From IMG/VR virus record IMGVR_UViG_3300031414_000013, positions 1-64,000 of that record: a DNA stretch of 64,000 bases, one strand, 5' to 3'. This document shows positions 39,171 to 44,840 of the stretch, piece by piece; within the stretch, counting starts at the first letter, position 1; each line of letters opens with the position of its first letter. The notes below the pieces were generated by a model. The model ran no database searches. It was not told the DNA's origin and saw only the letters and a list, made by a program, of their open reading frames with translations. A program made the position numbers and the translations under genes. Origin of the DNA: a virus.

Positions 39171-39353
39171 TTAGATCTTACAGCCGTCGCCGCAGTCGTT
39201 ATCGCCTGCTGCCACTTCGATTGCTTCACCGCCACCAGAACGCATCTGGTCGACTTTCTCTTCTGACCCTTCCAGGTCCAGGTTGCCCAGCGCACCATCA
39301 ATGTCCAGTTCCCCAGCTGATGCTTTACCCAGAATCTCGTCTACCTTACTCAT
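39171..39353 (-). CDS. 60-aa acidic peptide ending in an NrdA-like tail
   Basis: C-terminus GDNDCGDGCKI; AAGGA RBS, overlap-coupled start. Confidence 0.7.
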   Translation of the reverse strand: MSKVDEILGKASAGELDIDGALGNLDLEGSEEKVDQMRSGGGEAIEVAAGDNDCGDGCKI

Positions 39354-39992: not shown

Positions 39993-40895
39993 TTAGTTTT
40001 CCACCGCAGTTTTGCTCAGGCGAGCTTGCGCATGGTTGTAAGTATCATCGCGACCGAAGTCAATCACGCGGATGCTGGACTGCGCGATTATCGGGTACAT
40101 AGTAATGACGATCGCTATAAAATAGTACCCGGCTTCAGCGTTATGACGCACTTCAACGGTGTGAGTGTAGCCGAAGTTTTCAGCACGCAGTAATCCTGCA
40201 TAGTCGTCTACAAGCTCTTTACTCTCATGACGCAACGCAACAATCACACCGTTCCGATGGTGCTTAACCAAAACCGGCATAACGTCAGATGGCACTGCCC
40301 AAGACTGAGGTGTAAGTTCCCGGTCAAGATTGAATTCGGCCTCATCCTCAATTGGTGCCTCCAGGAAACCCATGAAGTAAAGACGCAGTTTGTTCAGAAT
40401 CTCGTACAGCACGCGAGTCTTCTCTGGAGTCTGCGCTGAGAACGTAACGCTACCGCCAGCAAAACCAACTACGATAGTGGTAGTGGCCGGACGAGGTTCT
40501 TCATCGCCGATGCGAGTCGGTTCTACCAAACTGATGCTGTAGGTGTTGGCCAGATCAAAACCGACTTCAGTAGGTACTGAGATCTGGTAGTGATAATGGT
40601 GCGGTACATTAACCACAGCAAGCACGCGACCAGTTTTAGAAATACGCAGGTTGCAAACTGACTTAAACTGCAAGAACGGGGCAAAGATCAAATCATCGAG
40701 GACGGTCTTAGCTTCAGACTTCTCGTCAATCAATTCTGCCAGTTCGTGCTCGAACACCAGGAACTCGATACCCATGGCATCCTCTACGATAGCAGTGCCC
40801 GGTTCAGTACCAAAACCGAGATAGCGAACAGACTTAGAGCAGATGCCTTCGTCTGGGTCGTTCCATTGATACCAGGTATTCTTCACCAGTTTCAT
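39993..40895 (-). CDS. Multi-domain hypothetical protein
   Basis: 300 aa, ATGA overlap. Confidence 0.75.
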   Translation of the reverse strand: MKLVKNTWYQWNDPDEGICSKSVRYLGFGTEPGTAIVEDAMGIEFLVFEHELAELIDEKSEAKTVLDDLIFAPFLQFKSVCNLRISKTGRVLAVVNVPHHYHYQISVPTEVGFDLANTYSISLVEPTRIGDEEPRPATTTIVVGFAGGSVTFSAQTPEKTRVLYEILNKLRLYFMGFLEAPIEDEAEFNLDRELTPQSWAVPSDVMPVLVKHHRNGVIVALRHESKELVDDYAGLLRAENFGYTHTVEVRHNAEAGYYFIAIVITMYPIIAQSSIRVIDFGRDDTYNHAQARLSKTAVEN

Positions 40896-41392
40896 TTGTT
40901 CTTTCCTTTCATTTTGAAGTTTGAGGCAAGAGCAGCAAGCTCGTCGAATGTACGAATAACAAACTGATGCTCTTTGGCGTCAGTTGCTTTACAGAAAAGC
41001 TTCACTGCGTCTTCCAGCGTATCCGTAAGCTCTAAGGCAGCGCGGGCATGCTCTTCTGCGGTAAGGTACTGAGATCGACAGGTCAACACACCCGGCCCGG
41101 TCATAATACGAACCTCACTGAGAAACGAATTTTCCTTATCGACGAAATAGTCACGCAAAACGCCATGCTCATCGACAACGGCAGTTATCCAGCGACTATC
41201 GTGGTTGATGTTATCGGAAACGCCGTCAGCGCGATAGTCCAGGAAGTTAGCGAACACCGGACTAGTCGGTACCAACACGCCGTACTTAGTAGTCAAAACA
41301 GCCAGCGGAATATGTGTGTACATGCCATTGGGACGAACTTCACCACACACGAAAGCAATTCGGTTGTCTCGAACCATATAAACGTTTGACAT
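40892..41392 (-). CDS. Degenerate proteasome-beta/HslV-like paralog (no N-terminal Thr)
   Basis: N-terminal strand pair and HARAALELTDTLEDAVKLF helix pair match the neighbouring gene. Confidence 0.5.
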   Translation of the reverse strand: MSNVYMVRDNRIAFVCGEVRPNGMYTHIPLAVLTTKYGVLVPTSPVFANFLDYRADGVSDNINHDSRWITAVVDEHGVLRDYFVDKENSFLSEVRIMTGPGVLTCRSQYLTAEEHARAALELTDTLEDAVKLFCKATDAKEHQFVIRTFDELAALASNFKMKGKNK

Positions 41393-41393
41393 C

Positions 41394-41915
41394 TCAACCT
41401 ACCTTAATTGCTTTCAGTTTGTTAGCGTGATACACATCTACACCACGACCAGACAGGGTGTCCATTCGGTTAGCGAATTCAACGGCCTGTTTTGGTGTAC
41501 GACCAGAGAGCATGGCGGAGGATGCGAAGGTAGCACCCGTACCAACTGTGAAGTAGTCGATGTGCTCGTCGGAGATTGAGATCAACCCTTCGATGATACT
41601 GATAAACAGTTTGCGAGTCAGGATCAGGGTGGGTTTACGCACACGTTTACTAACCGCAAGAGCGAGTTCAGTGAATCCGGTGTCAGTCAACTGACCACCT
41701 CCCGCAAAGTGGTGAGCAACCATGCGGAACAGTTTCTCTAACTCGTCAGTGTGGTTCTTACTGAGATCGATGCCAGTAGAACCGTAGACGAATGTACCGC
41801 AGTCAGACATTTTCAGCTTTGGACCATCAGCGAAATGCGTACCACCGTCGTCACCCTTGATTAGCAATTGGCGATCAGCGGCGATACATTTACTATTAAC
41901 AACAATCGTTGTCAT
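41394..41915 (-). CDS. Proteasome-beta/HslV-like Ntn hydrolase
   Basis: MTTIV...IAADRQ...K...TVGTGATFA..AM...AVEFA..D..SG. Confidence 0.8.
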   Translation of the reverse strand: MTTIVVNSKCIAADRQLLIKGDDGGTHFADGPKLKMSDCGTFVYGSTGIDLSKNHTDELEKLFRMVAHHFAGGGQLTDTGFTELALAVSKRVRKPTLILTRKLFISIIEGLISISDEHIDYFTVGTGATFASSAMLSGRTPKQAVEFANRMDTLSGRGVDVYHANKLKAIKVG

Positions 41916-41976
41916 GTTTTGATTCCTTATGGTGCGAAATAGAACGAGAGTGGGTTTTCACCCACTCTCTTATGCC

Positions 41977-42297
41977 TTAGAAGCCGTTAGACTTCATGCT
42001 GCGATCTGGGCTACCACGACCTGTGCGTTCAGGGGTGCGCGCAACAGACTTAACTACATCGCGACCAATCAGCAGACCGGAGTCCAGCTGGAAAGTAATC
42101 GCGTCGCCAACAGACAGAGTTTTCTCACCTTCCAGATAGTCGACCTTAACCGGAACCTGGCAGTGGTCTTCACCAGAGATAAAGATACCTTTCTTGTTGA
42201 TGGCAACAACTTCAGCCTTGACGGTGGTGACGTCACCTGCTTTGCCTTCCTGGACATTCAGCAGTGGTTTGAATTTATCAGCAATGGTCAGTTTCAT
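41977..42297 (-). CDS. Stand-alone S1/OB-fold protein resembling domain 1 of ribosomal protein bS1
   Basis: IADKF..LL..E..GD..V...VVAINK...LSVGDAI...LD...LL..R aligns by eye to bS1 residues 1-90. Confidence 0.65.
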   Translation of the reverse strand: MKLTIADKFKPLLNVQEGKAGDVTTVKAEVVAINKKGIFISGEDHCQVPVKVDYLEGEKTLSVGDAITFQLDSGLLIGRDVVKSVARTPERTGRGSPDRSMKSNGF

Positions 42298-42327
42298 TTC
42301 TTACGTTCCTATTAGTAAAGGGGAGCC

Positions 42328-44698
<2,371 letters not shown>

Positions 44699-44816: not shown

Positions 44817-44840
44817 AGAGGAGACCCGAAGGTCTCCTCT
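44817..44840 (-). terminator. Intrinsic terminator
   Basis: AGAGGAGACC-TTCG-GGTCTCCTCT then TTT. Confidence 0.85.

Follow-up and report, generated by a model that had tools for sequence, protein, structure and literature searches.

We tentatively propose that a 106-residue protein encoded by a jumbo phage is an S1-like docking module of the same type as domain 1 (D1) of ribosomal protein bS1, that it probably does not bind RNA, and that it carries a linear motif in its tail. The proposed architecture has three parts, namely an N-terminal strand-helix-strand segment, an S1/cold-shock-type barrel, and a disordered basic tail with the motif G-S/T-P-D-R-S-x-K. The barrel would form the body of a protein-docking module and not a nucleic-acid binder, the C-terminal peptide would serve as a short linear motif engaging a second site, and the protein would be produced from the transcription unit of the NAD-dependent DNA ligase LigA. 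Among the proteins detectable by sequence comparison, bS1 D1 is the closest relative of the phage protein and its best match among the six domains of S1. Ribosomal protein uS2, on which bS1 docks, is one candidate partner, to which the residue-level comparison lends no support.

The Gene, Its Coding Frame, and Its Family

The gene occupies positions 41977..42297 (minus strand, stop codon included) of the 64,000-nucleotide stretch of phage DNA analyzed here (hereafter, the window); the ORF list contains it exactly as quoted by the first-pass annotation, with an ATG start and a 106-residue product. Ten homologous cluster representatives and a third-position substitution bias back this assignment: compared with a 75%-identical homolog at the locus L004, codon positions 1, 2, and 3 of the 106-residue frame carry 16, 13, and 41 substitutions, respectively. 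An overlapping plus-strand ORF (41929-42315) was rejected as the true gene, since in its frame the substitutions would pile up on position 1, and thus the coding frame is that of 106 residues. It is a genuine gene that evolves under purifying selection. The window is a portion of a 97-kb IMG/VR fragment with a GC content of 48% and a CheckV completeness of ~36%, from which we estimate that the source is a jumbo phage of roughly 270 kb. The LigA protein encoded next to the gene has its relatives in Serratia, Pectobacterium, and Erwinia jumbo phages, thus the host is probably a species of Enterobacterales. Shine-Dalgarno cores of at least 4 nt precede 61% and cores of at least 5 nt precede 36% of the 99 minus-strand genes, an unremarkable frequency that is uninformative on S1 dependence.

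A word-indexed search of 5.8 billion proteins yielded seven clusters with 60-100% identity, and three more distant members, 103-109 residues in length, came from 1.84 billion representatives searched exhaustively with a profile. Two other results of the profile search, P0011 and P0012, were treated as spurious repeat proteins and rejected; P0012 is repetitive by its sequence, and P0011 (4392 residues, nine stretches) was judged from the result table only. The family is thereby represented by ten cluster representatives, the distant members being 38-44% identical overall in the 10-sequence alignment. One of the distant members is gp206 of Erwinia phage pEa_SNUABM_54 (272.6 kb), the sole relative in the phage collection. 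Family members occur on contigs that reach 268-272 kb in length and on fragments, and the family is restricted to one clade of jumbo phages with genomes of ~270 kb. No PHROGs family was matched by the 106-residue protein and no Pfam model recognizes the family: PF00575 is absent for all 10 members at E-values up to 1, whereas the weak matches to S1_2 (PF13509; the top one, 14.5 bits against a cut-off of 21.8, E 0.039) and CSDE1 (PF23456; E 0.048) both lie below the curated cut-offs. The Atlas search pointed to S1/CSD-like clusters with a score of 0.84; its pointer to the TOTE S1/CSD domains was discarded, as Pfam gave it no backing.

Predicted Architecture and Fold

AlphaFold2 (AF2) returned the same model from two family alignments, with a mean pLDDT of 74. 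The N-terminal segment (residues 1-22; 42232..42297, minus strand) has the consensus M-K-L-x-I-A-D-K-F-K-x-L-L with near-invariant L3, K8, K10, L12, and L13, and is modeled as a strand (2-5), a six-residue helix (7-12), and another strand (15-17), the pLDDT being ~82-85 at residues 1-10. It is followed by a predicted five-stranded S1/CSD-type beta-barrel core (residues 23-82; 42052..42231, minus strand), which is delineated by the AF2 strands 24-34, 37-41, 47-53, 65-70, and 75-81, by the profile alignment to bS1 D1, and by the matches in PDB and in the E. coli genome described below. Strands 3 and 4 of the model are joined by a helix-free loop of 11-12 residues (54-64/65). The core is characterized by the motifs V-V-A-I-N-K-K-G, S-G-x-D, P-V-K-V, G-E-x-x-L-x-V-G-D, F-Q, and T-G-L-L-x-x-R, and its invariant polar residues are K35, D44, E58, D65, Q70, and R79. 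The remaining part is a basic C-terminal tail (residues 83-106; 41980..42051, minus strand), which is predicted to be disordered (pLDDT ~50) and holds the most conserved stretch of the family.

Comparison of the model with known structures indicates a small barrel of the OB/S1/CSD type and nothing more specific. Foldseek found nothing at E <=0.001 in either PDB or BFVD, and VIA-align, in a wide search and a second look, gave Z-scores of at most 5.6, the matches being generic small barrels such as the eIF5A OB domain, eS4, EF-P, and the OB domains of proteasomal ATPases. The S1-S2 chimera 4toi has a VIA Z-score of 3.9 with 26% identity, the highest identity in the list. The top neighbor in BFVD, with a Foldseek E-value of 0.023, a probability of 1.00, and an rmsd of 11 Å, is W6AT28, an uncharacterized 97-residue protein of Erwinia phage Ea35-70, while the family profile matched no sequence in the genomes of Erwinia phage Ea35-70 and Serratia phage Moabite; W6AT28 may be a very distant analog in another Erwinia jumbo phage.

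A barrel of this type with a basic tail might be expected to bind nucleic acids, for instance as an RNA chaperone, an mRNA-binding factor, or a helper of LigA that binds single-stranded DNA or nicks. The weak S1_2 and CSDE1 matches and the S1/CSD-like clusters of the Atlas are consistent with this reading, as are the net positive charge of the tail and the location of the gene directly after ligA, apparently in the same transcription unit, in three phages. However, the conserved aromatic and basic residues that RNA-binding S1 domains have in strands 2-3 were not found in the family alignment; among the ten members no barrel aromatic is conserved, with positions 39, 54, and 69 varying (position 39 is F, L, or S), and three of the six invariant polar core residues are acidic. 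Moreover, the top S1 match is D1, for which no RNA binding is detectable (PMC10123108), rather than any of the domains D3-D6; LigA has an OB domain of its own, and in Serratia phage Moabite ligA is followed by an unrelated gene. We consider a nucleic-acid-binding role rather unlikely, while noting that binding through the basic tail may be compatible with a barrel lacking conserved aromatics. The absence of conserved aromatics, the balanced or acidic polar residues, and the non-RNA-binding D1 as the best match together favor the protein-docking reading, and we infer from these sequence features that the phage protein binds a protein and not RNA.

Relationship of the Barrel Core to bS1 Domain 1

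The first-pass annotation had described the protein as a stand-alone mimic of bS1 D1 that aligns with E. coli bS1 from residue 1, quoting the E. coli sequence. The quoted N-terminal sequence agrees with rpsA taken from NC_000913.3, and BLASTP reproduced the alignment, pairing phage residues 1-73 with S1 residues 1-74 (20 of 76 positions identical, 26%; E 5e-4 for a single pairwise comparison). The protein is a single domain, the later S1 domains being absent, as had also been stated. The coinciding positions include I5/F5, A6/A6, F9/F9, and L13/L13 (phage/S1), a VGD..x.LD block, and LLIGR opposite LLSRE.

Profile searches single out the same domain. Against 177,635 distinct PDB sequences, the family profile retrieved seven chains at E 0.19-1.2, all of them from E. 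coli S1 constructs that include D1; these chains represent one sequence and are not independent matches. In a six-frame translation of the E. coli K-12 chromosome the N-terminus of rpsA is the sole match (E 0.0255); the signal is borderline, since the same profile had no match in the genome of an Erwinia with a D1 that shares 98% identity with the E. coli domain. The HMM-HMM comparison with RpsA that had been suggested was performed using hhalign and S1 domain alignments built from 23 S1 proteins sampled across Pseudomonadota. D1 scored highest, at 33.4 (P 1.5e-5, probability 79.5%, columns 25-74), followed by D6 (24.9), D3 (19.4), D5 (13.6), D4 (10.9), and D2 (9.6). In 150 column shuffles of the family alignment compared with D1 the mean score was 12.0 (sd 2.5, maximum 21.4), and the reversed alignment scored 15.9. 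The observed score exceeds the shuffle maximum, and thus the sequence similarity of the core (residues 25-74) to D1 is beyond chance, yet it is marginal and below conventional significance in each single search. Among individual domains, several D1s of the gammaproteobacterial type obtained HMM scores of 17-19 bits, others of that type only 9-12 bits, and most D1s that are only 43-45% identical to the E. coli domain 2-5 bits.

This similarity could also be a generic S1/OB pattern (G-x-V ... V-G-D-x-V-x-V ... L-S/G-R) that is uninformative on either a D1 origin or a function. The scores of D6 and D3 reach or approach the upper end of the shuffle distribution, the Pfam S1 families are not reached, and the fold searches do not single out any S1 domain, all of which accords with such a pattern. 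By contrast, the family profile finds D1 only in both PDB and the E. coli genome, with no other S1-type or cold-shock domain, and the hhalign score of D1 is 8.5 points above that of the next S1 domain. A structural feature points in the same direction: D1 is set apart from canonical S1 domains by a loop of ~11 residues that replaces the alpha-helix between strands 3 and 4 (PMC4288201), and the phage model has a helix-free loop at this place. Thus, we regard a purely generic resemblance as unlikely.

The N-Terminal Segment and the uS2 Contacts

The docking of bS1 on uS2 has been characterized in detail. Either of the substitutions F5A and F9A abolishes S1 binding to ribosomes and to S2, Phe5 and Phe9 stack on Phe32 of uS2, and S1 residues 19-106, i.e., the core without the N-terminal segment, do not bind ribosomes, whereas D39K and K43E have minor effects (PMC4288201). 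Cryo-EM added the contacts of Q7 with M6, of E10 with R7, of K43 (loop 2) in the zinc pocket, and of F79 with H18 of uS2 (PMC10123108). It had been proposed that the phage protein is the corresponding uS2-docking module and that it could dock on uS2 in place of bS1, displace the host bS1, and shift translation toward S1-independent mRNAs.

Several observations accord with such a decoy. The nearest relative is D1, with the similarity being mostly highest to D1s of the host (gammaproteobacterial) type; BLASTP and HMMER share the same register relative to S1, which places I5, A6, F9, and L13 opposite F5, A6, F9, and L13; and the protein consists of one domain, the mRNA-binding domains being absent. 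Furthermore, expression of S1 residues 1-106 in E. coli keeps native S1 from assembling and inhibits bulk translation, and an 18-residue N-terminal peptide of S1 alone inhibits translation in vitro (PMC4288201). The precedent of S1(1-106) provides a reason to test the decoy idea and is not evidence that the phage protein acts alike.

At the level of individual residues the correspondence breaks down. Among the six uS2-contacting residues F5, Q7, F9, E10, K43, and F79, only F9 is kept in the phage protein, which has I5, D7, F9, and K10 at the aligned positions, and this residue is itself L or V in distant members. Position 5, where F5A alone abolishes S1 binding, is I or V in the family and F in just one member. 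Position 10 is invariantly K or R, reversing the charge that E10 presents to R7 of uS2. Loop 2 of the phage protein is two residues shorter and acidic (E43/D44) near the S1 position whose lysine (K43) enters the zinc pocket, and a counterpart of the F79 loop was found neither in the phage protein nor in the family alignments. In a complex prediction with E. coli uS2 that used the family alignment for the partner, a single run without controls, the score was 0.00 against a mark of 0.32, an outcome that weighs on neither side of the binding question.

The retention of hydrophobic positions 5, 9, and 13, which had been noted for the N-terminal helix, is correct in that I5, F9, and L13 align with F5, F9, and L13; however, F9 gives way to L or V in distant members and the likeness does not reach significance. 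When the N-terminal profile of S1 (residues 1-17, ungapped) was applied to the window, the score of the phage protein was matched or beaten by 8 of 251 ORF N-termini, by 2.4% of the 17-mers, and by 5.7% of the shuffles, so that the N-terminal similarity is within chance (p about 0.03-0.06). Moreover, in the AF2 model the N-terminus is built into the fold and is not a free amphipathic helix. With five of the six contacts replaced, the N-terminus packed into the predicted fold, and an invariant C-terminal motif that has no S1 equivalent and that a decoy leaves unexplained, the designation of the protein as a uS2-docking module is not upheld, and displacement of host bS1 from uS2 appears highly improbable.

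The Conserved C-Terminal Tail

Relative to the overall divergence of the family, the best conserved element is the linear motif G-S/T-P-D-R/Y-S-x-K-S/C/Q-N/Q at residues 95-104 (41986..42015, minus strand), which has no counterpart in S1. The 10-sequence alignment, despite an overall identity of 38-44%, has G95, P97, D98, and K102 in every member and R99 and S100 in almost every one, whereas the last two residues of the tail are variable (GF, GY, SF, RP, GM, or GI). A tail that is predicted to be disordered and yet is strictly conserved in sequence resembles a short linear motif, and we infer that it is a binding motif. Its net positive charge would suit a nucleic-acid-binding protein; however, the strict conservation of sequence suggests specific recognition over general electrostatics. 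A search with the tail peptide in E. coli and in an Erwinia genome found no host protein that it might mimic, the one match (E 0.42, in a 68-codon open frame) being not significant.

Genomic Context

The gene belongs to a conserved minus-strand array comprising a 115-residue gp49/Sf6 gp66-like protein, LigA, the 106-residue protein, a 10-bp hairpin, an HslV-like N-terminal-threonine peptidase, and a phrog_8172 protein. This order is common to the window, the locus L004, and phage pEa_SNUABM_54; the context evidence is limited to these three phages, the scans of viral and metagenome contigs having yielded only the 75%-identical locus. The 115-residue first gene (44351-44698, minus strand) is weakly assigned through Phage_gp49_66 (PF13876; E 3e-4, below the cut-off) and phrog_322. 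The upstream neighbor, ligA (42328..44382, minus strand), is complete, with Pfam adenylation, OB, Zn, HhH, and BRCT domains. The listed ligA ORF begins at TTG, has an in-frame Met at residue 12, and is aligned by its Erwinia phage homolog only from residue 19; translation probably starts farther downstream than the listed TTG. The possibility that the 106-residue gene is an OB domain split off from LigA was rejected, since the ligase keeps its own OB domain.

Just past the stop codon of the 106-residue gene, a hairpin scan identified a terminator-like, GC-rich 10-bp hairpin with a GAAA loop (41946..41969, minus strand). It is identical at L004, and in pEa_SNUABM_54 a hairpin of unrelated stem sequence is found in the same place. 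Because the hairpin is conserved in position, the 106-residue gene is probably co-transcribed with ligA as the end of its transcription unit. A second perfect GC-rich 10-bp hairpin with a TTCG tetraloop is located at 44817-44840 and reads on both strands, so that the two hairpins bracket the gp49-like, ligA, and OB gene unit.

Beyond the first hairpin lie the HslV-like peptidase gene (41394..41915, minus strand; phrog_1040, E 1.2e-13), whose product starts with M-T-T-I-V, a sequence that suggests a Thr1 nucleophile, and, 1 nt downstream of it, the gene of the phrog_8172 protein (40892-41392, minus strand). Pfam recognizes neither of the two proteins, and the pair is kept both at L004 and in pEa_SNUABM_54. 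The 106-residue protein might accordingly be an accessory of this protease, forming an OB ring with flexible C-terminal tails that dock on the peptidase, after the manner of the N-domains and C-terminal docking motifs known from the proteasomal activators PAN, Mpa, and Bpa. In each of the three contexts the gene lies immediately upstream of those for the peptidase and its partner, the phrog_8172 protein; the tail of the 106-residue protein is both conserved and disordered; and Rpt, Mpa, and PAN are represented by their OB domains among the top Foldseek probabilities (0.82-0.87, at E 0.3-1) with VIA Z-scores of 4.4-4.8. However, these values are tied with those of eS4, eIF5A, and EF-P, and no structural score goes beyond what generic barrels obtain. 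Conservation in the tail stops short of the C-terminus, with variable last residues, which is a poor fit with docking through a terminal carboxylate, and the conserved terminator-like hairpin separates the two genes. Co-occurrence says little, as the HslV-like subtype shows the same clade restriction as the 106-residue family. We therefore consider a protease-accessory role very unlikely. Since the HslV-like subtype occurs in the same clade and the ligA gene of phage Moabite is followed by a gene unrelated to the 106-residue gene, synteny is unable to discriminate between the possible partners.

Elsewhere in the window, positions 39171-39353 (minus strand) encode a 60-residue acidic peptide with the C-terminal end D-C-G-D-G-C-K-I, which resembles the tail with two cysteines at the C-terminus of E. 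coli NrdA. The presence of an NrdA-tail-like peptide in the same phage raises the prior for excised host-module mimics and in this respect favors the decoy idea. A broader scenario can be drawn, in which the protein would be a stand-alone descendant of bS1 D1 acting on the S1 site of uS2 or on another client of the S1 N-terminal domain through a re-wired interface. Its C-terminal peptide would be directed toward the mRNA exit and anti-SD region, host bS1 would be stripped or excluded, translation would be reprogrammed early in infection, and the genome would encode several mimics derived from excised host modules, of which the protein would be one. We hold this scenario, too, to be highly doubtful, and retain the docking module with a linear-motif tail as the preferred reading.

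Comparison With Known Systems

The closest known counterpart is bS1 D1 together with its N-terminal segment (RpsA residues 1-86; PDB 2mfi and 4toi), which the phage protein resembles in length and order of elements and with which it can be aligned from residue 1. Both have V-V-A-I-x-K ... G-E-x-x-(I/L)-x-V-G-D ... L-D ... L-L as the pattern of the core, a loop without helix that joins strands 3 and 4 (in the phage protein according to the AF2 model), and no RNA-binding aromatic signature. The differences are, however, substantial: the identity is only ~26-28% with marginal E-values, loop 2 of the phage protein is two residues shorter and its strands 4 and 5 are linked by a shorter turn, and D1 precedes D2-D6 in bS1, whereas the phage protein stands alone and has an invariant C-terminal motif absent from S1. 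With the generic S1/cold-shock OB proteins (PF13509, PF23456; IF1, CspA) it has in common the small five-stranded barrel; however, their conserved aromatic and basic RNA-binding residues are absent from the phage family.

Full-length ribosomal proteins, including bS1, are known in phages, for example in the cyanophage PhiMa05 (PMC13157829; survey in PMC6375957). Phage-encoded bS1 is likewise a ribosomal-protein-like viral gene product, but it is recognizably multi-domain and thought to replace the host protein, whereas the 106-residue protein is a single diverged domain recognized by no family model. A non-exhaustive literature search turned up no account of a D1-like protein that occurs naturally on its own.

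On present evidence, the protein is a modestly interesting lead rather than a discovery, and the idea of a decoy, though attractive, is unsupported. If the protein is not a decoy, it is still an S1-like module that lacks annotation, is restricted to one clade, and has a linear motif of unusual conservation. The system most similar to the decoy idea is the engineered fragment S1(1-106)/S1NTD, which is also a D1-only protein of ~100 residues and which in E. coli fills the S1 site on uS2 and blocks the translation of canonical mRNAs (Byrgazov et al., PMC4288201). That fragment has the native sequence with F5 and F9 intact, whereas the phage protein is highly diverged at the contact positions. If the decoy idea is true, the phage protein would be the first natural counterpart of this laboratory fragment and would exemplify a novel means of phage takeover of translation, in which the ribosome's arm for catching mRNA is removed instead of being modified.
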